Both the position numbers and the translations under genes were made by a program. From NCBI GenBank assembly GCA_009784275.1, contig WRCA01000001.1, positions 62,404 to 126,403 on the forward strand: a stretch of DNA of 64,000 bases. The letters are read 5' to 3'. This document shows positions 859-57,669 of this stretch, one piece after another (positions within the stretch are counted from its first letter, which is position 1; each line of letters starts with the position of its first letter). Under the pieces are notes generated by a model that was not told the DNA's origin, did not search any database, and saw only the letters and a program-made list of their open reading frames with translations. This DNA is from Alphaproteobacteria bacterium (GTDB taxonomy: Bacteria > Pseudomonadota > Alphaproteobacteria > Rs-D84).

Positions 859-2214
859 ATGTCGAAAAAGAACAAAACTAGCAAATGCACATTCTTCAAA
901 TTCTTTTTATTTTTCTTGTTTTGTTCAATTACGCCCGCTATCAGCGCATGCAATCCTGGATGTTTTGATAACGGAATAGATTGTGAACCATGCTTAACAG
1001 GAACATATTCCGAAAATGGCGATACATGCATCAGCTGCCCCAATGGAAAGACTGGAAATATTACTGTTGGTTCTACATACTGCGTCAATTACATAAATTT
1101 GAAAAGCAGCACCAACGCGTCAGTAATATTAAGAGCAAATAAAAATACTACGCCCAACTTGTGCATAGAAACAAATAGTGGGGATAAATACTACGCTGAT
1201 CTGTCATCTATTCTTACTGGCAAATTCAAGATAATTCATAACAGCACAGCTTACTCTGTCGTGGAACCCGCCGGGAAACTGGCCAGTGAATGCGGTATTC
1301 CTGATCGCGGTTTTCAAGTGACCTTGCAGGGTATGTTTACAAATAACACTTTTAGTTTCGAAATTTCTTCACAGGGAAATTTCCAAGTAGATTGGGGTGA
1401 TGGTACAGCAATACAACAAATAAACAAAGCGAATACCACAAAAACTACTTATTCGCATACATATACTTTTTCTGGTGGTGGAACCAAGGACTACATCGTA
1501 ACTTTAACTGGCCAGGCGACGGGACATAGCTCTGGCATTATGGCGCCAGCGATATCTTTTGAAAATTCTTTCAGCAGGAGTAAAATAGTCGCTATCACCG
1601 GCGATCTGGGTGCGATATTTCCGATATTGGGCAACCCCGTTGGCAGCACAATCGGCAGTCCACAGTTTTATCAAACATTCTATGGTTGCAGTGGTCTTAC
1701 TAAAATACCGGACAACCTGTTTGCCGGTCTTAATGGCCCTCCGCTGACTTTTATGTTTTATGGCACATTCCAAAACTGCACTGGTCTTACCAAGATACCA
1801 GCCGATTTGTTTGCCAGTGTAAAAGGCGCACCAGCGAATGGTATGTTCTATGCTACATTTCAGGGCTGTACTGGTTTGAAAGGAGAAATACCAGGCAGCT
1901 TGTTTGCAGGAATCAAGGGCGCGCCAATAAGCTGGATGTTTGGGCTTACATTTTCTGGATGCAGCGGTTTAACCAGCATTGGCGATGGATTATTCGATGG
2001 CATATCAGGAGCAATGGCAAGCTATGCATTCACAAGCACATTTGATGGATGTGCTAATCTTACTGGGCCATCAGCAACAACCAAAGGCAGCAACGGCATC
2101 AGAAAACCTTTATACCAGGAATGGCCATCAGCGTTAACTGGCCAAGTCGGAAACTGTTACACCGGCGCGAACAAACTTACTGATTGGGGCAGCATTCCAG
2201 CAGCATGGAAATAA
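859..2214 (+). CDS. secreted multidomain surface protein: Cys-rich module, PKD-like domain and ~30-aa FxxTFxGCxGLTxIP repeats (paralogue A)
   Basis: 451-aa ORF with SD gggagag upstream and a hydrophobic signal peptide. The Cys-rich module reads CNPGCFDNGIDCEPCLTGTYSENGDTCISCPNGKTG. A PKD-like signature reads FQVDWGDGT...YSHTYTF...YIVTLTG. Four to five repeats of about 30 aa follow. A paralogue lies at 29294-30229. Confidence 0.85.
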   Translation: MSKKNKTSKCTFFKFFLFFLFCSITPAISACNPGCFDNGIDCEPCLTGTYSENGDTCISCPNGKTGNITVGSTYCVNYINLKSSTNASVILRANKNTTPNLCIETNSGDKYYADLSSILTGKFKIIHNSTAYSVVEPAGKLASECGIPDRGFQVTLQGMFTNNTFSFEISSQGNFQVDWGDGTAIQQINKANTTKTTYSHTYTFSGGGTKDYIVTLTGQATGHSSGIMAPAISFENSFSRSKIVAITGDLGAIFPILGNPVGSTIGSPQFYQTFYGCSGLTKIPDNLFAGLNGPPLTFMFYGTFQNCTGLTKIPADLFASVKGAPANGMFYATFQGCTGLKGEIPGSLFAGIKGAPISWMFGLTFSGCSGLTSIGDGLFDGISGAMASYAFTSTFDGCANLTGPSATTKGSNGIRKPLYQEWPSALTGQVGNCYTGANKLTDWGSIPAAWK

Positions 2215-4821: not shown

Positions 4822-7560
4822 TTATGCCGCTCTATCATAATCATGCGTTGCCAGATAACCCGAAGTCTTCATCCAGCGCTTATCAAAATTATTCGTCGGG
4901 TCGGCTTCTTCACGAATTGTTTTAGAGCTGCGGAATATGTTATGGTCATTGACCTTCGCGCCAGTATATCCATTCACATAATTCCAGAAGAAAACCAATT
5001 CATCAAATTTGGTCATCTCATCAGCTTCACGCTTCGCTGGTTTGCTATCTGTGGCTTTGGCCTCATCTTTTTCTTTTTTGGTATTTCTGATATTATGCGC
5101 TGCTTCCGCGTATTGTTTCTCGTTCTGCGCAATAAGCAAATTACGACGAACAGTATATTGTTTTTCTTTGGTTATTTGCAGCCCTTCCAATCTTGCTTCT
5201 TCATTGGCATAATCAACTTTTCTTTTCTCTACATACTCTTCAAGTCTCCTGGCTTGTTCGTCATTCCGGAGATCTTTATAATCACCAATTTCATTTTCAA
5301 GTAATTGTTTTCTTTTAGCTAATGGCTTTAATTGCTGTTCAAGACGCAAATATTGCGCTTCTTCCCTTTCTGTTAATTCTCCTTCAGCCTCTGCTTTGAC
5401 TTCTAATACTTCCTTTTGTTCTTCAATGTGTCTTTCAGCTTCTATTAATTCATCTAATTCTCTTCTTACTTCTGATAATTTATAATATCTTGCAAGTCTT
5501 GCTTCGCAACTAGTTATAATATCTTCTAATGCATCCAAGCCCTGCATGGGTCTTGCAGCATCCTCGGCGATTCTCAAATCCTCATTAGCTCTATTCAATC
5601 TCTCTTTTGTTTCATCCCAGTAATTAAAACCTTCCGGGGAAACTTTTTCAGGATATCTGCGACCACCCATAATACGATTTTTACTATCGCGCTTTGCATC
5701 CGAAATTCCGTCGGTAAGCCGCTTATTATCTAATTTGACTTTTCCGCGACGGAATTGATATTTATTTCGTCCAGCAATGGCCAGTTTGTATCCGCCTTTC
5801 ATTAAAAGATTTAATCCGGTGGTTGCAGCACCGACTACCTGTTTCACCCCTTCATGTTTCATAAAACTTGCATCTTTGAGGGGGTCAAACTTATCCTTGA
5901 AAATCTCGTTATAATGTGCAGATGAAAAAGTGTCATAACGCATCACAGCCAGAACTTCCAACGCGACCTTTGCCTTTTCAACTTCGCGATGTTTTACGCC
6001 CCGTTTGATGATTTCCATGGCAATGGCCTGACACTTGGCTCCATTACGCAATGCGCCTTCCAAAGCCTTATCCATCTCACCAGAATTTTTCATTTCTGTC
6101 AGGCTGGCCATCAAGAAATCGAAACCTTTTAATGATGCAGTAGATTTCGCTTGAATTTTTGGGCGAAGTTCATCCTTCTTTTCCAAAACTTTCAGAATAC
6201 CATCAGTGGGGGAAATTTTGGCCTTGCAGATCGCAGCTACTATTCCTTGGGCATTGGGTGCACTGTAAATATGAGAATGCTGCTTTTTCCAAAGTTTCTC
6301 TATGTGCTGCTCGCGCCAATCATCCCATTTTTTCTGAACTGTCTGAACTACATTCCGCTTTTCTTCATATTTGGGGACTAACTGGTTGTCACCGGAAGAA
6401 TAGTTGCTTTTTTCCAGCGCATAACTCATATAACCAGTCAGCTTATTGCCATTATATTTTTCAAATTGCTTAAAGAATGCGGATTTATTTTCTTTATCTT
6501 CTTTGTCATAGAAATCTTTCAGCAGCTCCTGATAAAACTCCGGCTGCTTGAACATTTGCATCTGATCTGGAGTAACTTCATCGTTTTCAGGATTCATCCT
6601 GGCAGATAGTTTTGTTAAGTCGCCAAGTTGTTTTATTCGTCTTATTCGATCTCGTTTGTCTTCCAAAGAACTATCGTCAATCGTCGCAACAGAATTTTCA
6701 ACATAGTCTTGCAAACGAATTGCAACCAGACGCAAATGTTCTCTGCATTTAGAATTGCCCATAAAATCTTTGTCAGATAGATCTTTGGCAAATTGCGTTA
6801 TAGGATATTCTTTGGTGAAAATCTTGTTATAATCGGGTAGATTTTCTAAATAGTCGTATATGATACCTTTCGCATCTAGTTCTCGTTTTATATTTGCAAT
6901 AGTACTTATCGCACCTGCATCTTTCGAAGGGTCCAGCTGTGGTTTGGAAAAAGGTTTTAATCCTTTTTTACCAAAATACTTATCCAAAGTCGCAGTGCCA
7001 TTTTCTGGGTCTGCGCGTGACAGCTCCGTCCGATCGTCATCCATAGATCGAAGTGTATTCTGAACAACTCTATAAAACTCATCCCAGCCGGGGTCATCAA
7101 GTTCCAGCGTCAAATCCGGAACTGTATCCAGTAGTTCACCCGTCTTTGGATCACCCCAACCTTTCTGCGCTGCGCTGCGTTTGTCATCAAGGAAAATTTT
7201 GTTCCCGTTCGGAGCAATTTCAAACCGCTTACCACGCAAATCATACCATCTTGCACGCTGGTCTGCGCTCATTTTGGAAATATGATACTGCTTAAACCAT
7301 TTTTTCAGAGAGTTTTCAAAAGTGTCTGCCTTTACCCCTTTGGCGGTGCGTTCAGCATCAATTGGGGTAACCCTTTCTGTACTGCGCTTATTAAATTCCT
7401 CACTTATAGCACTTTGTATTCTTTCCTTTTCTTCATCATTGGAAGCATACTTTTCCGCCCAATCCGAAATTTCAGCATCCGAAAGAACGCTAGAAACCAT
7501 AGCGCGAGCAAGCGCAAATTTGCGAGCTTGGTTGATAATGATATCTAATTTATCTGCCAC
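4822..7560 (-). CDS. large hypothetical protein with a long charged coiled-coil-like C-terminal third
   Basis: Uninterrupted 912-aa ORF. I recognise no family motif. A K/E/R-rich heptad-like region lies near the C-terminus. I see no signal peptide. Confidence 0.8.
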   Translation of the reverse strand: MADKLDIIINQARKFALARAMVSSVLSDAEISDWAEKYASNDEEKERIQSAISEEFNKRSTERVTPIDAERTAKGVKADTFENSLKKWFKQYHISKMSADQRARWYDLRGKRFEIAPNGNKIFLDDKRSAAQKGWGDPKTGELLDTVPDLTLELDDPGWDEFYRVVQNTLRSMDDDRTELSRADPENGTATLDKYFGKKGLKPFSKPQLDPSKDAGAISTIANIKRELDAKGIIYDYLENLPDYNKIFTKEYPITQFAKDLSDKDFMGNSKCREHLRLVAIRLQDYVENSVATIDDSSLEDKRDRIRRIKQLGDLTKLSARMNPENDEVTPDQMQMFKQPEFYQELLKDFYDKEDKENKSAFFKQFEKYNGNKLTGYMSYALEKSNYSSGDNQLVPKYEEKRNVVQTVQKKWDDWREQHIEKLWKKQHSHIYSAPNAQGIVAAICKAKISPTDGILKVLEKKDELRPKIQAKSTASLKGFDFLMASLTEMKNSGEMDKALEGALRNGAKCQAIAMEIIKRGVKHREVEKAKVALEVLAVMRYDTFSSAHYNEIFKDKFDPLKDASFMKHEGVKQVVGAATTGLNLLMKGGYKLAIAGRNKYQFRRGKVKLDNKRLTDGISDAKRDSKNRIMGGRRYPEKVSPEGFNYWDETKERLNRANEDLRIAEDAARPMQGLDALEDIITSCEARLARYYKLSEVRRELDELIEAERHIEEQKEVLEVKAEAEGELTEREEAQYLRLEQQLKPLAKRKQLLENEIGDYKDLRNDEQARRLEEYVEKRKVDYANEEARLEGLQITKEKQYTVRRNLLIAQNEKQYAEAAHNIRNTKKEKDEAKATDSKPAKREADEMTKFDELVFFWNYVNGYTGAKVNDHNIFRSSKTIREEADPTNNFDKRWMKTSGYLATHDYDRAA

Positions 7561-7762: not shown

Positions 7763-8365
7763 ATGACACGGATTTTACAAATTCGGCGTGGCACTGCTGC
7801 GCAAAATGATAATTTCACCGGCCTCGCCGGGGAAATTTCCATGGATACAGACACCAAGACTTTGCGCATTCATGACGGCGAAACACTCGGCGGATTTCTG
7901 CTTGCACGCGCAGATATGGAAAACACAAACGGCGCGCCATCAGGAGAAGGCACAAACTTCGACATCGAAACTGTGCCCGTTGGATTTTGGAATGGTTTAT
8001 TCGCAGCGCATAATCTGCGCCCCGCCCGCTTTCTGGAAAGCACGCTTTGCACTGTTGCCAACACCAGTTTTTATGACTACGCGTTTGATGAAGTTACCCT
8101 GGACACTGACATATCCTCTGCAATTGCCGAATGTGTTTTGGTTTGCCAGACGCCAGAGGCTGGCTGGGCTGTCGGGGACATTGTTCGCGGATTCGGCATA
8201 GGGAATCGCGCAAACCCAAGCCCCAACTTGTTTTTGGACTCTAACGGTCTGCATATTCGACTAGGTATCGGGACAGAGAATTTTTGGGTATCCCATAAAA
8301 CAACTGGCGTAACGACAAATATCACCAATGCCAATTGGAAAATAAAATTTCGAGTTTGGTATTGA
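7763..8365 (+). CDS. phage tail-fibre-like protein (Mtd/hyaluronidase-type N-terminal motif)
   Basis: The N-terminus MTRILQIRRGTAAQNDNFTGLAGEISMDTDTKTLRIHDGETLGG matches the tail-fibre N-domain pattern (RRGT...L..GE...DTDT..L..GDG.T.GG). SD aaggaag lies upstream. Confidence 0.7.
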   Translation: MTRILQIRRGTAAQNDNFTGLAGEISMDTDTKTLRIHDGETLGGFLLARADMENTNGAPSGEGTNFDIETVPVGFWNGLFAAHNLRPARFLESTLCTVANTSFYDYAFDEVTLDTDISSAIAECVLVCQTPEAGWAVGDIVRGFGIGNRANPSPNLFLDSNGLHIRLGIGTENFWVSHKTTGVTTNITNANWKIKFRVWY

Positions 8366-9709: not shown

Positions 9710-12250
9710 TTAACAACGAGTACCCGGCGGAGCACCCGGTTTCGGTATACTGATAGTTTGCTGTCTCATCGGAGGTCCCGTCGTAAATGTAATCCGAATA
9801 CACATATCATCTTCTTCTTGTGTAATATCAAATTCACAGGGGCATCCTTCGCCGTCAGCACCGCCACCGGGAGGCCCCGCAGGACCGACAGGACCAGTAT
9901 CACCTTTCGGACCTACTGGGCCTTGTGCGCCATTTGTGCCTGCAGCCCCTTGATTGCCTTGCGGGCCTTGCGAGCCTGTACCAGTTAAACCTTGGTTACC
10001 CTGATTTCCTTGTGGGCCTTGGGCACCTGTACCAGTTAAGCCCTGATTACCTTGAGAACCGGTTGCTCCCTGGTTTCCTTGTGGTCCTTGTGAACCTACA
10101 CCAGTAAAGCCTTGATTTCCTTGATTACCTTGAGATCCAGTCGCACCAGCTGTACCTTGGTTACCTTGTGGACCCTGCGAGCCTATACCAGTCAAACCTT
10201 GGTTACCCTGATTACCTTGTGGCCCTTGCGCACCTGTACCAGTTAAGCCTTGATTACCTTGTGATCCGGTTACTCCTTGATTTCCTTGCGGACCTTGCGA
10301 ACCTACACCAGTAAAGCCTTGGTTGCCTTGCTGGCCGTTCGTGCCAGCCGTACCTTGATTGCCTTGGTTCCCTTGGGGCCCTTGCGCGCCTGTACCAGTT
10401 AAACCCTGATTACCTTGCGATCCAGCCGCGCCGGCTATACCTTGGTTACCTTGTTGGCCATTAGTACCAGCGGTACCTTGATTACCCTGTAAACCAGTTC
10501 CGCCAGTTAAGCCTTGATTGCCTTGTGATCCGGTTGCGCCAATTGTACCTTGGTTGCCTTGCTGACCGTTCGTACCAGCTATACCCTGGTTACCTTGTTG
10601 GCCATTTGTGCCGGCCGTACCTTGATTGCCTTGCGAACCAGTTGCGCCCTGATTCCCTTGAGAACCTGTGGCTCCCTGTACACCTATGCCAGTTGCACCC
10701 TGTGAACCATCTATACCTGCAGTGCCTTGATTTCCTTGGGCACCAGCCGCTCCTTGCGAACCTGTCGATCCTTGTGCGCCAGCGGTACCTTGTGGACCAG
10801 GTATTCCTATACCAACTCCATCCTCACCAGGTATACCTTGCGGGCCGGCGCCGCCTGTTGCACCAGTAGACCCCTGTGCACCAGTTGTACCTTGTGCTCC
10901 TGTTGCGCCCTGGGCGCCATTTATTCCATCAATACCATCTGCGCCTTGGGCCCCTGTTGCACCTTGGGAACCCGTGGCGCCTTGTGCACCAGCAGAACCC
11001 TGCGCACCAGCTGCTCCTTGGGCGCCATCTGTACCATCAATACCATTTGCACCTTGCGGACCTGTGGCGCCTTGTGCGCCTGTCACACCTTGGGCACCAT
11101 TGGTACCGTCTGAACCATCGGTTCCTCGTTCACCTGGTTCACCTTGGTCACCTTTGACACCTTGCGGACCTGTATCACCGATTTCGCCCGTCGGACCAAT
11201 ATCACCCTGTGGACCTTTTTCACCTGGATCACCCAGGGGACCCTTGTCACCCTGCGGACCTTTATCACCATGGGCACCATCCGTACCAGGCATGCCTGGT
11301 AACCCTTCTAAACCCGGTTCTCCATCTGGACCTCTTTCACCTGGATCTCCTTGGGGACCCTTGTCGCCTTGGGCGCCTTTATCTCCGGGATTACCATCAG
11401 CGCCTGGAGCACCAGCCGCACCTTGTGCGCCATCTGGGCCTTGATTGCCATCGGGACCTGCACCATCTGGACCTTGTGCGCCAGTTGCACCCTGTGCACC
11501 GGCAGAACCTTGCGGACCAGCAGCACCTTGTGCGCCATCAGGACCTTGATTACCTTCGGGACCAGCACCATCTGGACCTTGGGCGCCAGTCGCACCTTGG
11601 GAACCTGTGGTTCCTTGCGAACCAGCCGCGCCTTGCGAGCCAGAAGCACCTTGATTACCGTCAAACCCTTGACCGCCAATCGTACCGATAGCGCCTTGGG
11701 TACCAGCAGAACCTTGCGGACCGATCACACCCTGTGCACCAACTGGACCTTGGGCGCCATCTGGACCCTGGACGCCAGATCCGCCTTCACCCCCGCCTTG
11801 CGGGCCTTGAGGACCAGTAGCACCGGTCGCACCTTGGGGACCTGTTGTTCCGGTTCCTGTGGAACCTTGGATACCTTGGGCTCCTTGAAATCCTTGCGGG
11901 CCATGGGCACCCTGCGGGCCGGCTTCGCCGTCGCCGATGCCATCTATTATGTTATAGATAACATCTTGAAAATTATTGAACTCGCTGTAAGTAACATAAT
12001 TAGAAAGGTCAATTGAACCACCACCGCCGCCGCCACCAGGAACTTTTACAATAGACCCAGGCTTCAGCGTATATGCTGTAGACTGAAGATACTTGCTGAT
12101 GGTATTAGTCATACGAGGCTGGTTCGCAGCGCTACGCGCAATAGAAGCACTGGTAGTAGTAGATGCAGGGATTTTTACAGTAGCCGCCGCCATAGAATCG
12201 GTAAACGATACCAATGACACCGTAAGAGCAAGCATGGAAACTCGTAACAT
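9710..12250 (-). CDS. secreted collagen-like (Gly-X-Y) repeat protein, paralogue 1 of 3
   Basis: 846-aa ORF with SD ggaaaggaaggg upstream and a signal-peptide-like N-terminus. A conserved ~105-aa N-module ends in [26 protein letters not shown]. Hundreds of residues of G-X-Y repeat follow. The protein ends in a short Cys-containing tail (GCPCEF...). Confidence 0.9.
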
Positions 12251-12271
12251 ATCCCTTCCTTTCCGCGGAAT

Positions 12272-12322
12272 TTATTCTCTGATTGGAAAAGTATATTACA
12301 AAAGCTTTTGTCCACGCAAGCG
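12272..12322 (-). promoter_or_regulatory. conserved upstream block shared with the 52290-54776 paralogue (promoter / 5' UTR)
   Basis: About 50 nt are near-identical to 54799-54850 (ttattctctgatwggaaaaktatattacaaaagcwtttgtccasgcaagcg). Confidence 0.55.
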
Positions 12323-18665: not shown

Positions 18666-20486
18666 ATGAGAGTTTTAACAAGTTTTTTTGTTATTTCAGC
18701 CTTGGTCTTGATGGATTCCGTTGCTGTCAGTGCCGTGGGCAGCGGGCGCGCAAGGCCCGGGTCTGTCACCGGCGTGCTGATGCAGAAAGCGCAAGATGAA
18801 GCGCGCATGCCTGGACTGGATGTAAATAATTGCCCGAACTGTGAAAAGCCTACCCCGCCGCCGCCACCGCCGCCGCCAATAAAGCCAGAAAACCCTTGCG
18901 GTGAAGTTATTCCTATGCTGGGCGTTGATATTTGCGTTGCACGCAATGCTTGCGAAGGCATCAAAGCTGATGGACATTCCGGTGTTTTTGATGAAACCAA
19001 GATGAAATGTCAGATTCCGGTTTGCGCACATAACTGGTCTGGGGTTATTAAAAAAGGCGGCGAAGATGTTTGCGGGTTGGTAGAAATGGGCACCGCACTA
19101 CGATGTGATGCCAATTTATTTGACCAGATTACCGTGATGCGGCGAACCAGCCAATGGGTTGCACCCTTGATGGCTGCGGGCGGCGCAGGAATTGGCGCGG
19201 GCGTTGGCGCGATAATCGATAAGAATCAAAATGCGAAAGCAGCGCACTTGGCAACATTGGCCAATGAAAATGAAGCCGCTTATAAAGGCGGTCAAGCTGG
19301 CGCCGCAAAGATAATGTTTGATGGCAGACCTTATGATCTGCCGGCGCAAGCCGCGGAATTAAGGGCCGCGCTGTCGGGCAATCGAAACTTGGACAACAAG
19401 ATTCAGCAAGCGATTAATTTGATCAATAACTGCACTGCACGCATATTCCATGACTTGGTACGCCTCGATGTCGATGGTTTCAGAAAATGGGGACGGATAA
19501 AGGTAACGGTGGGATCTGACTGCACATCCGATGTACATGACAACAGCGTAAAATTCTGCCAGTTTCAGAATATACATGCATCGACAGATAAAACTGCAGA
19601 TTGCAGCAAAGTCAGCTTTGTCAGGGCTTCGAATTTCAGCAATCCATACTTGCCGAATAACAAGCATCAAAATCCAAAACTGGAAGAATATTATTTTTAT
19701 CCTGAAAATAATGGGAATTTAATGTCGGGGGAAATATCTTCTGCTACTTGCCTGTTCCGTGACAGTCAAGGTTCCGCTGAACTTGATAATGACGCGACAA
19801 TACAGATGGATCTTTGGCGTATGAACTTTCTGACGCGTTATATTATGATGGCAACACAAGCGCAAAATTCAAAATTTAAATCCGACCTGGTAACCGCTTT
19901 GAATAAGTTTGAATTTTCCGCTAGCTCGGTAGACTCTGGGGTAAATAATTATGACATATTAAACTGGATCGTCGTAAGAAGTAAAAATGACAGCGATAAT
20001 TTCGGAAACGTTCCAAACGGTACTTGCAATTGGCAAGGCATTAACAGCTTGTTACCTGGCGAAGAATATCTGGGCAGCGCGGCATCTGTGGCGGATGATT
20101 CTACTAAAAACATTTTGATGGAAGCTTATGGCGCCCTTTTGGCATTAAGAGCACATGGTAATTTGAATGCCGAATTAGAAGCTTTGTTTGGAGTGTTGGA
20201 TTCGATTCAAGTCAATGCCGTTGGTATCGGCGGTATTCATGAAGGGTTAGGTGATCGCATAAATAAAGACCTTGGCAAGGATCGTCCTTGGTATCAGACC
20301 GCAACTGCACGCGGCGCACTGATTGGCGGTTTGGCGGGCGCAGCTGGCGGATTAGGATATTGGTTCGCCGAAGGCGCCAGCACGTTCTGTAATGTCGGCG
20401 GGTTCGAGCAAGTGAAACTAAACAAAAGTTATTCAGTTCCAACATTCAGAGAATACTTACTGAATAAAGGATTCATGCAACAATAA
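18666..20486 (+). CDS. secreted Cys-rich hypothetical protein with poly-Pro tract and glycine-zipper segments
   Basis: 606 aa with a signal peptide and a PPPPPPPP tract. Gly-zipper-like segments are AAGGAGIGAGVGAII and ARGALIGGLAGAAGGLG. The C-terminal tail resembles that of the 37259-38884 protein. Confidence 0.8.
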   Translation: MRVLTSFFVISALVLMDSVAVSAVGSGRARPGSVTGVLMQKAQDEARMPGLDVNNCPNCEKPTPPPPPPPPIKPENPCGEVIPMLGVDICVARNACEGIKADGHSGVFDETKMKCQIPVCAHNWSGVIKKGGEDVCGLVEMGTALRCDANLFDQITVMRRTSQWVAPLMAAGGAGIGAGVGAIIDKNQNAKAAHLATLANENEAAYKGGQAGAAKIMFDGRPYDLPAQAAELRAALSGNRNLDNKIQQAINLINNCTARIFHDLVRLDVDGFRKWGRIKVTVGSDCTSDVHDNSVKFCQFQNIHASTDKTADCSKVSFVRASNFSNPYLPNNKHQNPKLEEYYFYPENNGNLMSGEISSATCLFRDSQGSAELDNDATIQMDLWRMNFLTRYIMMATQAQNSKFKSDLVTALNKFEFSASSVDSGVNNYDILNWIVVRSKNDSDNFGNVPNGTCNWQGINSLLPGEEYLGSAASVADDSTKNILMEAYGALLALRAHGNLNAELEALFGVLDSIQVNAVGIGGIHEGLGDRINKDLGKDRPWYQTATARGALIGGLAGAAGGLGYWFAEGASTFCNVGGFEQVKLNKSYSVPTFREYLLNKGFMQQ

Positions 20487-27912: not shown

Positions 27913-27942
27913 TTGATTAAGAATTCGCTTTTATAGTATAAT
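27913..27942 (+). promoter_or_regulatory. sigma70-like promoter TTGATT-18nt-TATAAT placed for a leaderless transcript
   Basis: The -10 hexamer ends 6 nt before the ATG at 27949, and there is no SD between them. Confidence 0.45.
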
Positions 27943-27948: not shown

Positions 27949-29292
27949 ATGACAGCAAAGTTTAAAGTTTCCATAATCGCAATAGCGGCATCTTTGGTGT
28001 CGTTTTCTAATTCCATTGCTGCTGTCCCCAAAAAAATTCCTGCATCTACTATTAGCGCCCCTATTGCGCGCAGTGCCGCCAGTCAGCCGCGCGCTTCAAC
28101 ACAAACCTCCTTGGCTCTGTCGCGAATGCCTTCCTTTAAACTAGGTTCCGGCACAAACATTCCTGGTGGCGGTGGTTATGTAGACCTGTCTAATTATATA
28201 ACCATAAGCGAATTCAATAACTTTCAAGATGTTATCTATAACATAATAGATGGCATAGGCGACGGAGATACCGGTGCACAAGGCGCGACAGGTGCCCAGG
28301 GTCCGCAAGGCTCACAAGGCGCAACTGGTCTGCAGGGACCACAGGGCGCAAGCGAAGGCGGTTTTGGCGCACAAGGTGATATTGGTCCGCAAGGATCAAA
28401 GGGGGATCAAGGCAATACCGGCACGCAGGGCGCGCGAGGATTTCAAGGTGACAATGGTACCCCAGGTATAAAAGGTGATCAAGGGGATACAGGCGCACAA
28501 GGCGCAACTGGCGCGCAAGGTCCGACCGGAGAAGGAATAGGGATTCCTGGGTCCCAAGGAGAGCAAGGTACACAAGGTGTAACTGGGACACAAGGTTTTC
28601 AGGGTGCAAACGGAGCACAAGGCGTAACGGGCACAACTGGTCCGCAAGGCTATACCGGTGCAATGGGTCCACAGGGACATAATGGTGCGGACGGAGCCCA
28701 AGGTTATCAAGGCGAACCGGGAGTTGGCGCAAAAGGTGACCAAGGATATCAGGGTCAGAAAGGTGAATCTGGCGAAGGCATTGGAATTGCCGGACCACAA
28801 GGTCATCAGGGTGGACCAGGCGCACAGGGGAACCAAGGTTACCAAGGAGAATTGGGGGTTGGCGCGAAAGGCGATCAGGGCCATACCGGGGTGCAGGGTG
28901 CGACAGGCCAACAGGGATCGCAAGGAACCCAAGGCGCACAAGGCGCGGATGGTATGGGCTCGCAAGGCTTACAAGGTGTCCAAGGTGATGCCGGCGTCCA
29001 AGGTATAAAAGGCGATCAGGGGGATATCGGCGCACAAGGCAACCAAGGTTATACCGGCACGATAGGCCCGCAAGGCTATAACGGCGACCAAGGCCTGCAG
29101 GGATTCCAAGGCAATACTGGTAATACCGGAGCACAAGGACATCAAGGGTTCCAAGGCTATACCCCTGCAATCGGCACAACGTCCGGTACTATTGCCGGCG
29201 GCGATGACGATCGGTTCGATACTGTCCCAGATTTGCCCGGGGCGCCGGCAGGTACGCCACCCGCGGGTCGCGTTTATGTCTGGGTGCAATAA
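27949..29292 (+). CDS. secreted collagen-like (Gly-X-Y) repeat protein, paralogue 2 of 3
   Basis: 447 aa with the same N-module (…[29 protein letters not shown]) followed by G-X-Y repeats. It contains no Cys. The C-terminal tail reads [15 protein letters not shown].... Confidence 0.9.
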
Positions 29293-29293: not shown

Positions 29294-30229
29294 ATGAAAA
29301 ATATTTGCAAATATTTTTTCCTTTTTCTGATTCCTATAATTTTCATTAGTGATGCACATGCAGCAAGCAGCTGTGAACCGGGGTGTCATTTGGATGGGGG
29401 AATATGCAATCCATGCGACACAGGGACATATGAAAACAATGGCAACTGCATCGCATGCCCGGCGGGACAGACGGGCAATATCTTGACCGGCGCAACATCT
29501 TGCGTTAATTACAGAACTTGGAATACCAGCAATGGCGTGTCGGCATTCTTGCGTTCGACAAAAACCACAACGCCCAGCTTGATGATAAAGGATTCAGTCG
29601 GCGGTATTTATTACGGCAATTTATCCAGCACATTGCCCGGAGTATTCAAACTGGTGCATAACGGCACGTTGTATTCATTGGCAGAGCAAGGCAAGCTGCA
29701 ATCTTCTTGCGGCGGCATACCATCAGGTTTTCGAGTGATGCTGGACGGGATAAATCCCAGCGATACTTTCAACTTTCAAATATCAGCGCCCGGCAATTAT
29801 GCAATTCACTGGGGCGACGGCAACATGGATACAGTTAACAAAGCTGGCACAGCATTGACGACATATTCGCATGTGTATGCAGCCGGTGGAAATTATACGG
29901 TGACAATCGGCGGCGGCGCGACCGGGTATAGCAACAATACGACGACCGCGGCGATAAGTTTTTATAACTCGATAAACAAAAATAAAATTGTCGGCATTGA
30001 TGGCGACCTGGGCGCGATATTCCCGATACTGAATACATCCGATACCGGCAGCCCGCGGTTTTACAGAACATTCAAGGATTGCATCAATATGGCCGGCGAA
30101 GTTCCCAGCGATTTGTTTGCTGGAATTGTCGGCTTGCCGGTAACAAACATGTTTGCTGAAACATTCATGGGATGCACAAGTATCGATAGCATAGGCGACG
30201 GTCTGTTCGATGGTCTGATCGCTCAATAA
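29294..30229 (+). CDS. Cys-rich / PKD-like / 30-aa-repeat protein, truncated paralogue B
   Basis: The ATG lies 1 nt after the collagen gene stop. Signal peptide MKNICKYFFLFLIPIIFISDAHA, Cys module CEPGCHLDGGICNPCDTGTYENNGNCIACPAGQTG, and PKD-like HWGDGN...YSHVYAAGGNYTVTIGG. It has two repeats and stops after GDGLFDGLIAQ. Confidence 0.85.
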   Translation: MKNICKYFFLFLIPIIFISDAHAASSCEPGCHLDGGICNPCDTGTYENNGNCIACPAGQTGNILTGATSCVNYRTWNTSNGVSAFLRSTKTTTPSLMIKDSVGGIYYGNLSSTLPGVFKLVHNGTLYSLAEQGKLQSSCGGIPSGFRVMLDGINPSDTFNFQISAPGNYAIHWGDGNMDTVNKAGTALTTYSHVYAAGGNYTVTIGGGATGYSNNTTTAAISFYNSINKNKIVGIDGDLGAIFPILNTSDTGSPRFYRTFKDCINMAGEVPSDLFAGIVGLPVTNMFAETFMGCTSIDSIGDGLFDGLIAQ

Positions 30230-30239: not shown

Positions 30240-31619
30240 ATGTTTTATAAAAAATTATTCTTATTAGCGTTTTTGTTTTTTGCGACCATTGGTATTGCAG
30301 TCGCCGATCCCGATACGAACCAAGGCAAAGGCCTTGCGTTGGGCAATCAAGAGCCGACAGAAATTTTGGTAAAGTTTGTACAGAATGTTGGCAAAGGCCA
30401 AGTGCCAGAATTGTCCGATGCAACAGAGGTCGGCAGCATCCCGCAAATTGGAGTAAAAATATTAAAGGTCAAAAATCCAAAAGCCATCGCAAAACTGTTG
30501 GAACATAACAAGCATGTCGTATACGCCGAACCGAACTTTATTATGCACTTCAACATCATTCCAAATGATCCGCAATGGAAATCACAATCAGCAGCACTGA
30601 ACATCATTAACGCACCGGCGGGCTGGGATATCACCACCGGTGTTGGCAGTCCCATTATCGCCATAGTCGACAGTGGCGTCGCGAGCGGCCATACCGACTT
30701 GCCTCTGCTGTTACCGGGCTATGCGGCCGTTTCTGGTCTTTCACCAAATAACGACAAGGTGGGACATGGCACCGGTGTTGCCGGCACTGCGGGCATGATT
30801 GGGAACAATGGAATCGGCGGCGCGGGCATAAACTGGAACGCACAAATTCTGCCGGTCAAAATTGACGATGCCAATGGCACAATAACGGTCGCCAATGTTG
30901 CAAAAGGCGTTATATGGGCATCAGACAATAACGCAAAGGTCATGAATCTTTCTTTGGGGACTACATCAGACAGTGTGACATTGAAAAACTCCATAGATTA
31001 TGCTTATAACAAAGGCGTCGCTATTTTCGCGGCGACCGGTAACGATGGAAAAAACAGCATCGATTGGCCTGCGCGATATCCCAACGTTATCGCTGTCGGC
31101 AGCACAGGCAACGGCACAACACGTTATTCATCTTCCAATTACGGACCCGGCATGGACGTAGTGGCCATCAGCAGTTATTACACAACAACAGCCGCGGGCG
31201 GTTGGTTGAATATGGCCGGCACATCATTCGCATCGCCCCAAGCTGCGGGCTTGGCATCGCTGGTCTTTGCGGTTTGGCCCAGTGCGACGCCCGCCCAAGT
31301 ATATGATGTTATTCGGGACGGAGCAACGACACTGGGGGGCGGATATAATCAAGAAACGGGTTATGGACTTATTAATATGAGTGCAACTTTGACGCTGGCC
31401 GTGCAACGGGCTAGCAGCGGCAATAATATCATTTGGCCAGATAGCGCGTTTGAAAATATGTTTTCTGGTTGCACTTCTCTTTCTGGACCATCCGCGAAAT
31501 CGAGCGGTCAGTTTCTTTATCAAATCGCCCCAGCACTTGTTACTGGTGCCTATACCGGCGCCACCGGGCTTTCCGATTATAACCAAATTCCCGCGTCATG
31601 GGGCGGCGGAGGCATGTGA
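30240..31619 (+). CDS. S8 subtilisin-like serine protease with I9-like propeptide and a C-terminal tail homologous to the end of paralogue A
   Basis: 459 aa with a signal peptide. Catalytic triad motifs are AIVDSGV (Asp), HGTGVAG (His) and GTSFASPQAAG (Ser). The last ~65 aa (AFENMFSGCTSLSGPSAKSSG...YNQIPASWGGGGM) align with the C-terminus of the 859-2214 protein. Confidence 0.9.
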   Translation: MFYKKLFLLAFLFFATIGIAVADPDTNQGKGLALGNQEPTEILVKFVQNVGKGQVPELSDATEVGSIPQIGVKILKVKNPKAIAKLLEHNKHVVYAEPNFIMHFNIIPNDPQWKSQSAALNIINAPAGWDITTGVGSPIIAIVDSGVASGHTDLPLLLPGYAAVSGLSPNNDKVGHGTGVAGTAGMIGNNGIGGAGINWNAQILPVKIDDANGTITVANVAKGVIWASDNNAKVMNLSLGTTSDSVTLKNSIDYAYNKGVAIFAATGNDGKNSIDWPARYPNVIAVGSTGNGTTRYSSSNYGPGMDVVAISSYYTTTAAGGWLNMAGTSFASPQAAGLASLVFAVWPSATPAQVYDVIRDGATTLGGGYNQETGYGLINMSATLTLAVQRASSGNNIIWPDSAFENMFSGCTSLSGPSAKSSGQFLYQIAPALVTGAYTGATGLSDYNQIPASWGGGGM

Positions 31620-34735: not shown

Positions 34736-36028
34736 TTACTCGCACACAGCCACGAACGGCGGCAACGAACGGTCCGTATCAATTCTGCCGCCCATGCCGC
34801 AATCAAGACAATTGAATTTTCTATTTTGAGAATGCGTGCTGTCCATTGGAATTTCAACTTCATCAAGGCTGGGGATATGCTCCACAACCGCGGCTATGTA
34901 TTCCATATCCATCGGAAAGCCAAAATAAAATGCGCGTCCTGTTCCTTTGCATTCGCCCGGATTAGGATAACATACATGGCTGCTCAATTTCGTTTCGTCC
35001 GGTATGCAAACTATTTCGCAAGTATCTGGATCCGTTATCATCCTTTCACAATTATTACACAGATTTCCCGGCTTCAGCAAAGTTCCGCCCATTGCGCGAG
35101 TTTTAGCAATTTGTGCATTCTTGCATTTTGTCGTGCCGGTCGTGGCAACTTCTGCAACGCATGTCCATTCCAAAGCCGTATAATCCAATTGGGGCGTTGA
35201 GCCCGGCGGACAAGTGCGTTCCATTGTTGGCTCTAAACAATACCAAGTGCCGTCTACATCAACCGCCGTTTGACCGCTGCCGCATAATGGACGACGGGCC
35301 GGGTCAATTTCACAGCTTTGGGTTTCATATCGCCATATCGTATCGCCCGTGCAAATTTCCGGAAAATTTTGCGGCATGCATTCCCATTTGTTAAAGCGAA
35401 ATATCTTTTGTTCCCAAGGAGCACAAAATACTTTTTCAGCTGTCTCTACCGGCATACCCAGATTAACTTCCGCTGATGCTGAATATTGCGTAATATATAC
35501 CAGCTGCCCTTCTTCCAATTCTGCCGCTTTTACAATACTGTCTGGAATAACGCGCCTGTGGCCGTTGCCGGAAAGTATTGAAAAAGACCCGTCCGTTTTT
35601 ACTATTAAGCCAAAATTCGGCGCGGCTTCATATTCTTGCGACAGAATTTTCAATATCAGATTAGAATGTTTTGCGCCGACCATATCACCCGTCGTAACAA
35701 TAAAGTTTCCTATGGTTTTGCCCGCTCGGTCGGGGGTGCAGGCCGAGACTTCGCGCCTTTCATCCGCGCACAATTTTCGACTTTCAACATTGTATTTTTC
35801 CATGCATGGCATGTCCGAACCCAATTCTTCCGAAGCCTCGGCGCCACCCGCAGCGTCCAAGTCTATGGCCGCCGCATGCGCGCGCGCCATGCATGCCAAG
35901 ACGGATTTTACTTCGGTTACTTCGATCGCGGAACTTATGCTATCATTCTTCAAGCGTTGGCTGGGCGAATCCATCAGATAGTACCCCGCCATCAGAACAA
36001 AAACCAAAATCATTATAAAAATGTTCAT
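34736..36028 (-). CDS. membrane-anchored Cys-rich hypothetical protein
   Basis: 430 aa with an N-terminal TM helix. The C-terminal half holds more than 20 Cys residues. The stop lies 12 nt upstream of the waaA start on the same strand. Confidence 0.75.
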   Translation of the reverse strand: MNIFIMILVFVLMAGYYLMDSPSQRLKNDSISSAIEVTEVKSVLACMARAHAAAIDLDAAGGAEASEELGSDMPCMEKYNVESRKLCADERREVSACTPDRAGKTIGNFIVTTGDMVGAKHSNLILKILSQEYEAAPNFGLIVKTDGSFSILSGNGHRRVIPDSIVKAAELEEGQLVYITQYSASAEVNLGMPVETAEKVFCAPWEQKIFRFNKWECMPQNFPEICTGDTIWRYETQSCEIDPARRPLCGSGQTAVDVDGTWYCLEPTMERTCPPGSTPQLDYTALEWTCVAEVATTGTTKCKNAQIAKTRAMGGTLLKPGNLCNNCERMITDPDTCEIVCIPDETKLSSHVCYPNPGECKGTGRAFYFGFPMDMEYIAAVVEHIPSLDEVEIPMDSTHSQNRKFNCLDCGMGGRIDTDRSLPPFVAVCE

Positions 36029-37258: not shown

Positions 37259-38884
37259 ATGAAAAAAACATCAGTATCTTTGTATGTGCTCTGTGTTGTG
37301 TTTTGCGTCGGTAACGCCGGTGCTGCATTGCGCATTGGAAATTCCGGGACCGGTCGCGGGGGTACTTATGCTGCCCCGCAAGGAAGCGAAATTGTTGTGC
37401 AACAACAAGCAGAAATGCAAGAAATGTTGGAAACAGCGCAGAACTCGACAGAGCTGGGGCTGCCTGTGCGCGTGGCGAACATGGACATGGCGCGCGCTAT
37501 TGCCAGCGGACAATTTTACAATGGCGTTTCCATGGCAAATTTGGATTCTTGCGCTAATATTTTTCCAAATGGGTCTTTTGCTTGGGATAGAGCCAATGCT
37601 GGTTTAAAAACAAGCTCTGGTTGTGTTGCAGAGGTAGAGCTGCGTAAAATTGAAGGTACAGAAGATATTATTCTGGCGCGTGCACGTGTTGCGGCGGGTG
37701 GTTCCATAGACTGTAATATTGACGCGTTTCCTGCGGATGGTCTTACCATAGAAGCCGGCAAAGTTATTTTCCCTGCGGATCGCGAGCCCACATTGGCGGA
37801 AGTAAAACAGGCAATGAACCAGGAACAAAAACAAGGCGCCGGATTAAAGATTGCGGCGGCTGCGCTTATTGGTGGAATTGGCGGTAACTTCTTGGGTCAA
37901 AATGATCCTGGAAAAGGCGGCATGATCGGGACAAGCGGCGACAAAATGAAAAAGACCGCGATCGGCGCGGTGGCTTTGGGCGGTGCGACTGCGGTCAGCA
38001 CCCAAACGGGCAAAATCGGCGGCGATGTTGTCATGGGCGCAACGGTCAATGCCATAGGTGGCGGATTAATCGGTAACATGTCCGGTATCGGGGAAGCTGT
38101 TCTGCTGATAAAAAAATGCGAAGGATATGATTGCCTTTATGGAATTGTGTCAAAGGTTGCACCGATCACGGGTCCTGCTTTCTGGGGAAATCTGGGCAGC
38201 ATGGTAAAATGCACGGAATCAACAAAAGATGGCAAAACAATTTATGAACAATGCGGTGTTTCACAGATTCCATACTGGAGAATTGGCCAATGGAACCAGG
38301 ATTCCAAGATAGAAGATATTAATCGCGAGATGATGGGTAAAGGCTCCTTTTGTCTGATAGACGGCAAAATGGAAGACGCGACTGTGGGATGTGACGGCGG
38401 CGAAGGATTTTATAAACTGGATTCTGCGGAAGAAATGACAAGTTCAGAACCCGCGGTTATCGTGGACTGGGATGCCAGAAAATACAAAACCTATGCAGAT
38501 TTCAAGACATGGCGTGCTGGTGGTCCAAAGAATGTGGATATTAGATTCCGCTATGCTGATGGAACCATAGGGAAACAGGCGGTTGGAAGGGATGGCACGA
38601 CCTTTACAGCAAGAGATTTCAACGCTTTAACCCAGGATGCAACTGACGGCGGCATCATTGATCTTAATAACAAAGCACGGACGGGCGCGACAGCAACTGG
38701 TGCCGGTATAGGTGCAGGATTGGGGGCTTTCTCTTCTTTCCAGGGCGCCAAGGATGAAGTTGAAAATCGTCATGTCGCGGAAGTAACGGCTTATAAAGAT
38801 TCCCTTACGAAATTCTATTGCGCGACGGGCAAAAGATTCCTGTCGCAATATAACGAAGTTGTAATTATCCCGAATGAGAAATAA
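37259..38884 (+). CDS. secreted hypothetical protein with glycine-zipper segments
   Basis: 541 aa, starting 8 nt after the OMP gene, with a signal peptide. It has Gly-rich hydrophobic segments. The C-terminal ARTGATATGAGIGAGLG...FYCATGKRF tail resembles the 18666-20486 protein. Confidence 0.8.
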   Translation: MKKTSVSLYVLCVVFCVGNAGAALRIGNSGTGRGGTYAAPQGSEIVVQQQAEMQEMLETAQNSTELGLPVRVANMDMARAIASGQFYNGVSMANLDSCANIFPNGSFAWDRANAGLKTSSGCVAEVELRKIEGTEDIILARARVAAGGSIDCNIDAFPADGLTIEAGKVIFPADREPTLAEVKQAMNQEQKQGAGLKIAAAALIGGIGGNFLGQNDPGKGGMIGTSGDKMKKTAIGAVALGGATAVSTQTGKIGGDVVMGATVNAIGGGLIGNMSGIGEAVLLIKKCEGYDCLYGIVSKVAPITGPAFWGNLGSMVKCTESTKDGKTIYEQCGVSQIPYWRIGQWNQDSKIEDINREMMGKGSFCLIDGKMEDATVGCDGGEGFYKLDSAEEMTSSEPAVIVDWDARKYKTYADFKTWRAGGPKNVDIRFRYADGTIGKQAVGRDGTTFTARDFNALTQDATDGGIIDLNNKARTGATATGAGIGAGLGAFSSFQGAKDEVENRHVAEVTAYKDSLTKFYCATGKRFLSQYNEVVIIPNEK

Positions 38885-40776: not shown

Positions 40777-41549
40777 TTTTCTTCCCAAATTAAATGATTA
40801 ATACTCTCAAAGCCTTTTCCATGTTTGGCATTCGGGATAATTATAATTCGTTCCGGATTATTTATAAACTCTGCCGTTAATATTATCGGTATCACACTAT
40901 CTTCTGTACCGACATAATGTATTTGTGGAAATTTATTATATTCCTCTTTATATAAATTCAAATCTAATGACTGGTTTAATGGCGGAAGATTTTTCATTCT
41001 CGTCCATTCCGGATGATTTAGATTCCCAGCAATCGTTATTAATTTTTTCACATTTATTTCAAGATGCAATACTGCGACCAGTCCCGCAATTTGCGCGCCG
41101 CCCGAAAAACCGATTAAAATCATAGGACGGCGGTCAACAATTTGCTTTATAACCTCTGCCGATGCATCTACTGCTTTTTTCGAAAACCTGGCGGTTGTCC
41201 AATCGGTTTCTGTGCAGATCGGATCTTTTATATACTGACAAGGACGCGCGATATATACAACATTAGGAGAAGGATCTTCGAACGCAAGCCTTTGCATAAA
41301 ATCATCACGCGGCGTCGGGTCGGATGTTGGATGACCCCAGCCATCAAAGGCATTTCCGTCGCCTTCGATATAAATTTTTATAACAGCTGTTGAGTTTGTT
41401 AATTTCTGATAAATGCGCAAAGTAAACGTATCTGTATGTATATCGTGTTGCATAAAAGAATCCGGCGGCAAAATTTTCTGCGCGCATGCCGATACTAAAA
41501 ATAAACAAAGGAGCGCAATTTGCGCCCTTTGTTTTCCTCTCCCCAACAT
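40773..41549 (-). CDS. alpha/beta-hydrolase-fold lipoprotein
   Basis: Lipobox LVSAC and nucleophile elbow GFSGG. The start codon overlaps the stop of the upstream autotransporter by 1 nt (TGATG). Confidence 0.7.
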   Translation of the reverse strand: MLGRGKQRAQIALLCLFLVSACAQKILPPDSFMQHDIHTDTFTLRIYQKLTNSTAVIKIYIEGDGNAFDGWGHPTSDPTPRDDFMQRLAFEDPSPNVVYIARPCQYIKDPICTETDWTTARFSKKAVDASAEVIKQIVDRRPMILIGFSGGAQIAGLVAVLHLEINVKKLITIAGNLNHPEWTRMKNLPPLNQSLDLNLYKEEYNKFPQIHYVGTEDSVIPIILTAEFINNPERIIIIPNAKHGKGFESINHLIWEEN

Positions 41550-45867: not shown

Positions 45868-45929
45868 CATATTTTTTTACGAAATTATGTTTTTAACAAT
45901 TTAACATTAACAAAAAAAAGGAAAACAAA

Positions 45930-47372: not shown

Positions 47373-47403
47373 CCAAAACTGTTTTTAACCAAAGGAGCAA
47401 AAC

Positions 47404-48003
47404 ATGAAAAAACTTTTAACGATCATAGACATGCAATATGACTTTGTTATGCCGAAAGGCAAGCTGAGCCTTAATTGCCCGCAGATAGTAAAACCTGCGA
47501 ACGTTTTTGTTCGCGAACATGCGAATAAGTTCGACCACATACTTGCCACTCGCGACGATCACATAGAGCCCGAATACACCGAATGCAAATATTCGGATGA
47601 AGCAAAAAAGTTTCCAATACATTGCGAAGTCGGAACCCAGGGTCACAAGTGGCTGATAAAAATGCCGGCGAACAAAGTTTCCTGGTTGGGCAAAAAAGAC
47701 AATTCAATGTGGCACGCCAGCGCGAATATCGATGGTACCGGAAATGCGAATGTGCCCTTGAAATGGAATCCCGCCGAATGGGAAATGGTTCTATTCGGTG
47801 TCGCGTCCGACATATGCGTTGCTTATGCGATGGATGGATTTCTGAAACGGGGCTATTCCGTAACTGTGCTGACGGATTTATGCAAAGGCTTGTTCAAAGA
47901 AATGGATGCCGTCGCCAATGAAACCTATGTGGACTATTTGAAATCCGGTCAGCTGCGCTTGATAACCAGCACACAATTCACCAAAGAAAACAAAGGAAAA
48001 TAA
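47404..48003 (+). CDS. pncA: nicotinamidase / isochorismatase-family hydrolase
   Basis: Motifs IIDMQYDF (Asp), HC..GTQGH (metal site) and GVASDICV (Cys nucleophile). Confidence 0.8.
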   Translation: MKKLLTIIDMQYDFVMPKGKLSLNCPQIVKPANVFVREHANKFDHILATRDDHIEPEYTECKYSDEAKKFPIHCEVGTQGHKWLIKMPANKVSWLGKKDNSMWHASANIDGTGNANVPLKWNPAEWEMVLFGVASDICVAYAMDGFLKRGYSVTVLTDLCKGLFKEMDAVANETYVDYLKSGQLRLITSTQFTKENKGK

Positions 48004-48004
48004 A

Positions 48005-48751: not shown

Positions 48752-48763
48752 AAGGAGTTTACC

Positions 48764-49153: not shown

Positions 49154-49188
49154 TCTGATATTATCAATCTGATAAAAAAGGAAGTGAT

Positions 49189-49932: not shown

Positions 49933-49935
49933 CTA

Positions 49936-52278: not shown

Positions 52279-52289
52279 TGCTTTCAGCT

Positions 52290-57668: not shown

Positions 57669-57669
57669 T

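Follow-up and report, generated by a model that had tools for sequence, protein, structure and literature searches.

A lineage-restricted N-terminal module shared by three collagen-like paralogues of an alphaproteobacterium with relatives in termite guts

Three genes within a 64-kb stretch of alphaproteobacterial DNA (contig WRCA01000001.1; the whole stretch is referred to as the window) encode proteins in which a common N-terminal segment precedes long series of Gly-X-Y triplets. This raises the question of what the segment, here called the N-module, consists of, what it might do, and to which kind of protein it belongs. As described below, the N-module is lineage-restricted and previously undescribed, whereas the proteins that carry it are of a well-known type, that of the collagen-like surface fibres of bacteria. 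The three genes are designated W1, W2 and W3, and residue numbers refer to W1 unless stated otherwise.

The shared N-terminal module and its relatives

The genes and their N-modules, the latter delimited by alignment, are located as follows.

9710-12250, minus strand: W1, collagen-like paralogue of 846 amino acids (aa); Pfam PF01391 Collagen, E = 1e-84
27949-29292, plus strand: W2, collagen-like paralogue of 447 aa; Pfam PF01391, E = 1e-38
52290-54776, minus strand: W3, collagen-like paralogue of 828 aa; Pfam PF01391, E = 5e-40
11936-12250, minus strand: N-module of W1
27949-28263, plus strand: N-module of W2
54462-54776, minus strand: N-module of W3

An earlier reading of this DNA, made from the sequence only, had placed three collagen-like open reading frames (ORFs) of these lengths at these positions, and all three indeed match Pfam Collagen. 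The common N-terminal part of about 105 aa that it described is recovered as well: alignment of the three modules gives 63-72% amino-acid identity, and a tblastn search with the W1 module returns the other two copies at E = 1e-22. The same search detected no fourth copy in the window, and none was found in the approximately 7 kb past its right end. Identity and tblastn E-values place the similarity far beyond chance, and the sequences support a real paralogous family with a common N-module. All of the elements previously listed are present, namely a signal-peptide-like start, VKIPAS or KKIPAS, a poly-Gly stretch (7, 4 and 5 residues in W1, W2 and W3, respectively) and the block (I/V)DLSNY(V/I)T..(E/D)FNNFQD(V/L)IY(N/S)IIDGI, which stops 2-3 residues short of the first Gly-X-Y triplet. 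In W1 the module is built from five parts, of which cap and helix are given together.

12188-12250, minus strand: signal peptide of the Sec type (aa 1-21), cleavage being predicted between SMA and AA (read from the sequence)
12038-12187, minus strand: cationic, acid-free tail (aa 22-71), which includes ATVKIP and the core motif (charge, AlphaFold2, conservation)
12017-12037, minus strand: poly-Gly hinge of 7 Gly (sequence; the length differs among the paralogues)
11930-12016, minus strand: DLSNYVT cap and amphipathic helix (aa 79-107), immediately followed by the first Gly-X-Y, which starts at G108 (AlphaFold2, heptad analysis)

Inspected by eye, the W1 signal peptide displays a basic n-region, a 13-aa hydrophobic core and small residues at positions -3 and -1, and the cleavage context, A-x-A followed by A(V/A)T, is common to 15 family members. 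The adjoining tail is rich in Ser, Thr, Ala, Gly and Pro and carries a net charge of +6 without a single Asp or Glu, while the net charge outside the tail amounts to -39, -22 and -59 in W1, W2 and W3, respectively. In the AlphaFold2 (AF2) model the W1 tail is disordered, with a predicted local distance difference test (pLDDT) score below 50. A tail net charge of +5 to +10 with 0-2 acidic residues is found in 15/15 family members, and the core NTI[SG]KYL..T...LKPGS.IK[VI]P represents the most conserved stretch family-wide. The sequence-only reading had treated this upstream segment as filler; it is, however, the cationic tail with AVT[VI]KP and the core motif that is conserved throughout the family, and judged by sequence conservation the tail is the heart of the N-module. 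W2 is particular in that its core tail motif is degenerate or lost, and its helix is intact and the same as that of W1.

Apart from one helix at residues 88-106 (pLDDT 60-70), the AF2 model of the N-module monomer is mostly disordered (pLDDT 50). This helix has a length of about 2.5 heptads and in W1 stops two residues before G108. Its a and d positions are occupied by F91, F94, I98, I101 and I105, the pattern F, F, I, I, I being found in the window genes. Compared with shuffled sequences, the hydrophobic moment reaches z = 2-3.3 across the segments (z = 3.3 in W1), and an amphipathic a/d heptad register recurs in 10/12 family segments tested. β-Branched Ile at both a and d is reportedly, from Harbury's GCN4 variants, the classical signature of a trimeric coiled coil. 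A role in trimerisation or registration, as suggested earlier for this position, fits the AF2 helix, the heptad register and the hydrophobic moment of the last ~20 residues and is plausible for these residues only; it does not extend to the rest of the module. Likewise, the DLSNY..FNNFQD block described as nearly invariant is present in W1-W3, but its DLSNYVT portion is generic: DLSNYVT plus helix forms a repeat with many copies in unrelated fibre-like proteins (P0008, P0009, P0015, P0018-21), and the FNNFQD helix sequence itself is not conserved across the whole family.

Relatives were collected with a filter-free hidden Markov model (HMM) search, in which a profile of the window sequences was compared with 1.84 billion representative proteins at E <= 1e-3. 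Among the 12 matches about eight are true relatives, which carry the names 'MAG: Rickettsiales bacterium' (Hm464_bin176; MAG, metagenome-assembled genome) and 'Alphaproteobacteria bacterium'. The Hm464 bins belong to a metagenome of the Hodotermes termite gut (PMC11707648). Further loci, L006-L014, were obtained by scanning genome and metagenome contigs. Features kept across the family are A-x-A before and AVT[VI]KP after the predicted cleavage site, the acid-free cationic tail, NTI[SG]KYL..T...LKPGS.IK[VI]P, a Gly-rich hinge, DLSNY[VY]T and the heptad register. Other searches were less productive: a word-indexed protein search with the W1 N-module and a first profile scan of genome contigs with the window-only alignment returned nothing, and a 10-sequence profile used in the word-indexed search was swamped by low-complexity words and yielded mostly generic DLSNYVT repeat proteins. 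The N-module has no match in Pfam, NCBIfam, PHROGs or the PDB, nor among 50,697 GenBank phages or 2.9 million IMG/VR contigs, and a match to a characterised phage tail-fibre or BclA-type N-domain, named in the sequence-only reading as a refuting outcome, was looked for and not found.

The contigs of L006, L008 and L009 (CAZUED01, CAZHPG01 and CAYJAG01) are titled 'uncultured Muribaculaceae'. L006 and L009 hold a fabF-mltG-fibre locus, with an outer-membrane protein (OMP) gene between mltG and the fibre gene, which is collinear with that of the Rickettsiales MAG locus L007 and encodes proteins resembling those of this MAG; L008 carries the N-module. The Muribaculaceae label of these three contigs looks doubtful.

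Two of the added loci are positional orthologues of W3, situated directly downstream of lgt: L014 (994 aa) and L011, the ORF of which spans 710 aa from an upstream TTG and 673 aa from the conserved MLRIS start. Both are intact, so that the concern that these genes might be pseudogenes in related strains is not borne out. The N-modules of L014, L011 and W3 are conserved, while interiors, C-terminal halves and overall lengths (994, 710 and 828 aa) differ. The ratio of nonsynonymous to synonymous substitution rates (dN/dS) of the N-module is 0.15-0.5 at dS of about 1, which indicates that the copies are old and under purifying selection. A recent duplication as the source of the shared module was rejected on the basis of this dS value.

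Shafts, distal parts and expression signals

Behind the N-module the proteins consist of collagen-like repeats interspersed with other elements.

10816-10839 in W1; 28528-28551 and 28771-28794 in W2; 53443-53466 and 53224-53247 in W3: GxGIGI[PA]G sites
9713-9859, minus strand: W1 C-terminal Cys-containing tail of 49 aa, with a candidate CPC knot at aa 803-805
54018-54335, minus strand: W3 phage-fibre-like insert, aa 148-253 (tblastn matches in tail-fibre and head-fibre genes of phages at E = 2e-6 to 3e-4)
52776-52898, minus strand: W3 candidate CETC knot and second coiled coil (aa 627-667), immediately ahead of the final collagen segment
52293-52658, minus strand: W3 C-terminal Cys-containing domain of 122 aa, homologous to the L014 C-terminus (E = 2.5e-11)

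In W1 the Gly-X-Y part comprises about 690 aa. Uninterrupted runs reach up to 71 triplets in W1-W3, and the collagen parts are rich in Gln, Thr and Ala, poor in Pro and contain many breaks of 1-2 residues. CPC and CxxC motifs are situated at the collagen boundaries of W1 and W3 and are candidates for interchain disulfide knots. The second coiled coil of W3 (aa 630-667), which the CETC motif precedes, is longer than the N-terminal helix, with F, L, F, L, F, L, V, L at its a and d positions. PHROG tail-fibre families also cover the insert at aa 148-253 of W3; further non-collagen modules of this protein are SAY(E/D)L...EWLESL and one 'IQYKM', akin to the DGREVEMR..IQWKY repeats of relatives. In the relative P0012 the distal region contains a carbohydrate-binding module, CBM5/12. 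Judged from these similarities, the fibre interiors are mosaics of modules that are used by phage fibres too, which the base is not.

The C-terminal pieces have no match in Pfam, NCBIfam, PHROGs or the PDB; the W1 C-terminal tail in particular has none in Pfam or NCBIfam, and the AF2 single-sequence model of the W3 C-terminal domain is unusable (pLDDT 40). Many fibre-like proteins of the lineage, with or without an N-module, end in P.P..C..(6-8)..C.L ... W.W(L/V), as seen in L006 (8922-9563), L007 (8822-11308), P0001, P0002 and P0004. The ending of W2 (29164-29289) resembles a Cys-less version of the P.P..C...W.W(L/V) motif. Two ideas on variation in W1 were discarded: phase variation of the variable-number tandem repeat (VNTR) type, because the repeats detected by TRF are imperfect (63-85% matches, periods of 18-207 nt), and a C-terminal domain swap with L011, because the similarity is too weak (E about 1e-3 in a tiny database).

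A one-residue collagen interruption, G-x-G-I-G-I-[PA]-G, occurs in five copies across W1-W3. Neither this motif nor the exact helix sequence of the window genes is present in the positional orthologues L011 and L014. Moreover, the W3 module is nearer to that of W1 (73% identity) than to that of its own positional orthologue (65%). The sharing of helix and GxGIGI within one genome, together with the closeness of W3 and W1, hints at intragenomic exchange or co-adaptation. Over the helix the nucleotide identity peaks at 0.87-0.96, which is only slightly above the expectation for invariant amino acids, and gene conversion is accordingly a weak possibility here. Sharing of helix and GxGIGIPG kink among the paralogues alone could also point to heterotrimeric co-assembly of W1-W3.

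The following expression signals can be recognised.

12290-12320, minus strand: W1 promoter-like element CTTGCGT-N18-TATACT, with homology to that of W3
12252-12262, minus strand: W1 ribosome-binding site (RBS) AAAGGAAGGGA, common to W1, W3, L011, L013 and L014
9663-9690, minus strand: terminator-like hairpin after W1 with a stem of 12 bp and a T run behind it, which W1 shares with ackA, a convergent gene
54817-54847, minus strand: W3 promoter-like element CTTGCCT-N18-TATAAT (homology to the W1 element)
54778-54788, minus strand: W3 RBS
52256-52279, minus strand: terminator-like hairpin after W3
27913-27942, plus strand: W2 promoter-like element TTGATT-N18-TATAAT, ending 6 nt before the ATG

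The element CTTGC..-N18-TA(A/T)A(A/C)T and the RBS AAAGGA(A/T)GGG are kept in W1, W3, L011, L013 and L014. Between W1 and W3 the shared block reaches about 100 nt upstream and includes promoter, 5' untranslated region (UTR) and RBS, with the highest upstream nucleotide identity (0.8-0.89) at -85 to -45. Since W1 and W3 each possess their own promoter-like element and terminator hairpin, they represent monocistronic units. At W2 the alignment reveals a deletion of the 5'UTR and RBS found in W1 and W3; as the -10 box lies 6 nt from the ATG, W2 is a candidate for a leaderless mRNA. In the window Rfam detects tRNAs only, so that the conserved 5' regions contain none of the known RNA elements.

The fibre model, its alternatives and the surrounding genes

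The gene content of the window is that of an ordinary cellular chromosome of a Gram-negative bacterium. It includes housekeeping genes (ackA, RNase PH, RNase E/G, ClpB, glycyl-tRNA synthetase (GlyRS), five tRNAs and a cluster for salvage of nicotinamide adenine dinucleotide (NAD)) and envelope genes (LpxI, Kdo transferase, Lgt, three PagL paralogues and an autotransporter), and its GlyRS is 80-87% identical to many MAG proteins named 'Alphaproteobacteria bacterium'. All three fibre loci are flanked by housekeeping and Gram-negative envelope genes and by no phage genes, the adjoining genes being ackA, RNase PH, LpxI, a DNA glycosylase, lgt and a methyltransferase. No gene for a capsid, terminase, baseplate, integrase or reverse transcriptase was seen in the 64 kb. 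An identical W3 is encoded in independent assemblies, namely on ENA ERZ27257304 contig k141_2131074 and on a Logan SRR10512951 contig; W1 and W2 are present on ENA contig k141_1693273 as well, and flanking proteins of the window also occur in NCBI and JGI data. Identical W3 in independent assemblies and the recovery of the flanking proteins indicate that the genes are not assembly artefacts.

The reading we favour, at about even confidence, is that W1-W3 are Sec-exported, parallel homotrimeric collagen-like fibres in which the shared N-module acts as base and assembly unit. After cleavage of the signal peptide at A-x-A, the cationic disordered tail would tether the base of the acidic fibre to the anionic envelope, with lipopolysaccharide (LPS) or an outer-membrane protein as partner. 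Separated from the tail by the Gly hinge, the Phe/Ile-zipper coiled coil would gather three chains in register and nucleate zippering of the Gly-X-Y repeats from the N- to the C-terminus, and CxC/CxxC knots may lock segments in W1 and W3. The acidic shaft would then project from the cell surface, with the variable C-terminal parts pointing outward as a ligand-binding or antigenically variable end, which would suit an adhesin. The analysis shows the anatomy of the module and its conservation, the charge asymmetry, the helix with its heptad, purifying selection and a cellular, non-phage gene context. Trimer formation, the direction of folding, anchoring, surface location and the adhesin role are what we infer; the homotrimer is suggested by the collagen repeats, the conserved signal peptides, the charge asymmetry, the AF2 helix and the conserved heptad, and by the second coiled coil of W3, which also directly precedes a collagen segment. 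The model is further supported by dN/dS, the promoters and terminators of W1 and W3, the promoter-like site before W2, the housekeeping and envelope genes around all three loci, the synteny with lgt in intact orthologues whose C-terminal halves differ, the distal CBM5/12 of P0012 and the precedents Lcl and EPclA.

Several points weigh against this model. The frequent breaks and the low Pro content leave the stability of a triple helix unproven, the confidence of the helix is modest (pLDDT 60-70) and its length is only about 2.5 heptads. W2 does not possess the core tail motif and may behave differently if this motif is the anchor. Moreover, the window contains no recognisable secretion system that could take the proteins across the outer membrane.

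Alternatively, the tail could be no general electrostatic tether to LPS but a docking or sorting peptide, its partner being a dedicated small β-barrel of the outer membrane that holds the base or helps in its export. Directly upstream of the N-module gene of L006, L007 and L009 there is a gene for an OMP_b-brl protein (PF13505) of about 300 aa, in a conserved order fabF-mltG-OMP-fibre, and at nt 7752 of L007 the stop of the OMP gene overlaps with the start of the fibre gene; AVT[VI]KP and GS.IK[VI]P also resemble β-strands able to pair with the sheet of another protein. However, the window contains no homologue of this OMP, neither W1-W3 nor the copies in L010, L011, L013 and L014 have an adjoining OMP, and an 8-stranded barrel would be unable on its own to export a trimeric fibre, so that we regard this explanation as rather unlikely. 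A wider form of the idea, in which tail and AVT[VI]KP N-terminus constitute an unrecognised envelope-anchoring or sorting signal for trimeric fibres of diderm Alphaproteobacteria, working with such a dedicated small β-barrel OMP, has a slim chance of being correct. Release of the proteins, as a matrix or biofilm scaffold or as a host-mimicking collagen, appears distinctly unlikely. The tail would then be a pro-peptide or chaperone-like segment that is removed once the protein has been exported, for instance by an S8 subtilase, and such a protease with a fervidolysin-like prodomain does follow W2 and the surface-protein gene that starts 2 nt on. The Gly hinge would offer an accessible cleavage region, and the N-terminus of BclA is known to undergo processing. 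Lcl, too, occurs in culture supernatants (PMC11162425). On the other hand, the exact mature N-terminus and the core motif are kept in distant members, which argues for a role in the mature protein, and the protease adjoins only W2, the copy with the degenerate tail.

That the genes are remnant or domesticated phage tail-fibre genes, with the N-module as virion-attachment domain, is very improbable. PHROG tail-fibre families score strongly, largely via the collagen repeats, the insert of W3 (aa 148-253) and its SAY(E/D)L...EWLESL modules are similar to modules of phage fibres, DLSNYVT is frequent in fibre-like proteins, and a gene with an Mtd_N domain lies 1.3 kb from W1. The N-module alone, however, yields 0 matches in the phage collections searched (PHROG, GenBank phages and IMG/VR), and all copies carry Sec signal peptides, for which tail fibres have no need. 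Furthermore, the genes occupy three separate, monocistronic loci amid housekeeping genes with no capsid, terminase, baseplate or integrase nearby, and the synteny with lgt is kept across strains.

The Mtd_N gene (7763-8365, plus strand) encodes a stand-alone protein of 200 aa, the first ~40 residues of which match Pfam Mtd_N (E = 2e-13) and a PHROG tail protein. Mtd_N is the N-terminal domain of the phage major tropism determinant; no reverse transcriptase or other part of a diversity-generating retroelement was seen in the window. It is located between ackA and a gene without assigned family (4822-7560, minus strand), which encodes a Lys/Glu-rich, coiled-coil-like protein of 912 aa with neither a signal peptide nor a Pfam or NCBIfam match. 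The gene following W2 (29294-30229, plus strand; shorter start in the public gene call) and that at 859-2214 (plus strand) are secreted paralogues with a Cys-rich, TNFR/ephrin-receptor-like N-domain followed by F..TF.GC..L..I....F repeats. Together with the S8 subtilase gene (30240-31619), W2 and its 29294-30229 neighbour may form one operon.

LpxI adjoins W2, an LPG_synthase_TM protein is encoded near W1, and three tandem PagL (lipid A deacylase) paralogues (57081-58895, minus strand) are close to W3; the presence of envelope-modifying genes near all three fibre genes may be coincidence. The autotransporter (41549-43777, minus strand; β-domain E = 2e-37) has a passenger with repeats of Chlamydia polymorphic membrane proteins, and large secreted or Cys-rich proteins without family assignment are encoded at 18666-20486, 34736-36028 and 37259-38884; surface or exported proteins without assigned function are thus numerous in this region. 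The NAD salvage and biosynthesis cluster (44818-50895) comprises NadR/NMNAT-Nudix-like, NAPRTase, isochorismatase-type nicotinamidase and NadE proteins, an NrtR regulator and a kinase-Nudix fusion.

Comparison with known collagen-like systems

To our knowledge, Gram-negative collagen-like fibres are known from few examples (Lcl, Bucl), and how their base is held on the outer membrane is poorly understood. The present family offers a compact base unit defined by sequence, consisting of signal peptide, cationic tether, hinge and a minimal Phe/Ile coiled coil. As this base is conserved while the distal parts are shuffled, questions of anchoring and registration become testable with short constructs, and for recombinant bacterial collagens the unit provides a candidate for a small trimerisation tag. 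W1-W3 probably mark an adhesion system of an uncultured termite-gut lineage.

BclA and related exosporium proteins resemble W1-W3 in the logic of their layout, in which a conserved segment for attachment at the N-terminal base is followed by a stalk of collagen and by a distal C-terminus that varies. They differ in belonging to Gram-positive spore formers, in their C1q/TNF-like C-terminal trimerisation domain and GPT repeats, and in being attached through exosporium proteins; W1-W3 have no Pfam match to BclA_C or C1q, and their genome context is Gram-negative. Streptococcal Scl1 and Scl2 possess a signal peptide, an N-terminal non-collagenous region that trimerises and a collagen-like stalk, and fold from the N- to the C-terminus. 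W1-W3 share the signal peptide, the N-terminal non-collagenous region and the stalk. However, Scl proteins are anchored through a C-terminal LPXTG with the N-terminal V domain distal, whereas the C-termini of W1-W3 have no LPXTG. A C-terminal anchor of the YadA type, as in trimeric autotransporters, has no Pfam match in W1-W3 either, and the N-module sequence matches no PDB chain.

EPclA-D of enterohaemorrhagic Escherichia coli (EHEC) prophages show collagen segments interspersed with phage-fibre repeats, as in W3, and EPclA trimerises by means of a coiled-coil module that precedes the collagen (PMC3368898). EPcl proteins, however, start with PfN (PF08400), end with PfC (PF06820), have no signal peptide and are located in prophages, none of which is true of W1-W3. 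The sequence-only reading had also considered three such genes in 64 kb a high density for a Gram-negative chromosome. This is not remarkable in itself, since Burkholderia has 13 Bucl collagen-like genes (PMC4565658). The likeness to Bucl lies in the presence of several collagen-like genes in one Gram-negative genome; Bucl genes are unrelated to one another and carry diverse known non-collagenous domains, whereas W1-W3 form one paralogous family.

The best functional analogue is Lcl, a type II secretion substrate of Legionella pneumophila. Its signal sequence is followed by an N-terminal helix of 30 aa, which assembles into a coiled coil and attaches to the bacterial surface, and then by collagen repeats and a C-terminal domain (PMC11162425). 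W1-W3 share with Lcl the Gram-negative background, the signal sequence, the short amphipathic helix directly before the collagen and a non-collagenous C-terminus; the analogy is one of layout, without detected sequence homology. Lcl differs in its DUF1566 C-terminal domain, W1-W3 having no Pfam match besides Collagen at E <= 0.01, and in its tandem 15-aa GPQGLPGPKGD(K/R)GEA VNTR repeats, which TRF did not find in W1. Compared with Lcl, W1-W3 add a cationic disordered tail of 50-90 aa with its motif and a Gly hinge before the helix, and they are three paralogues with mosaic interiors. In conclusion, W1-W3 are a variant of the known bacterial collagen-like adhesins and not a separate kind of system, and the general concepts developed for such proteins are unchanged.

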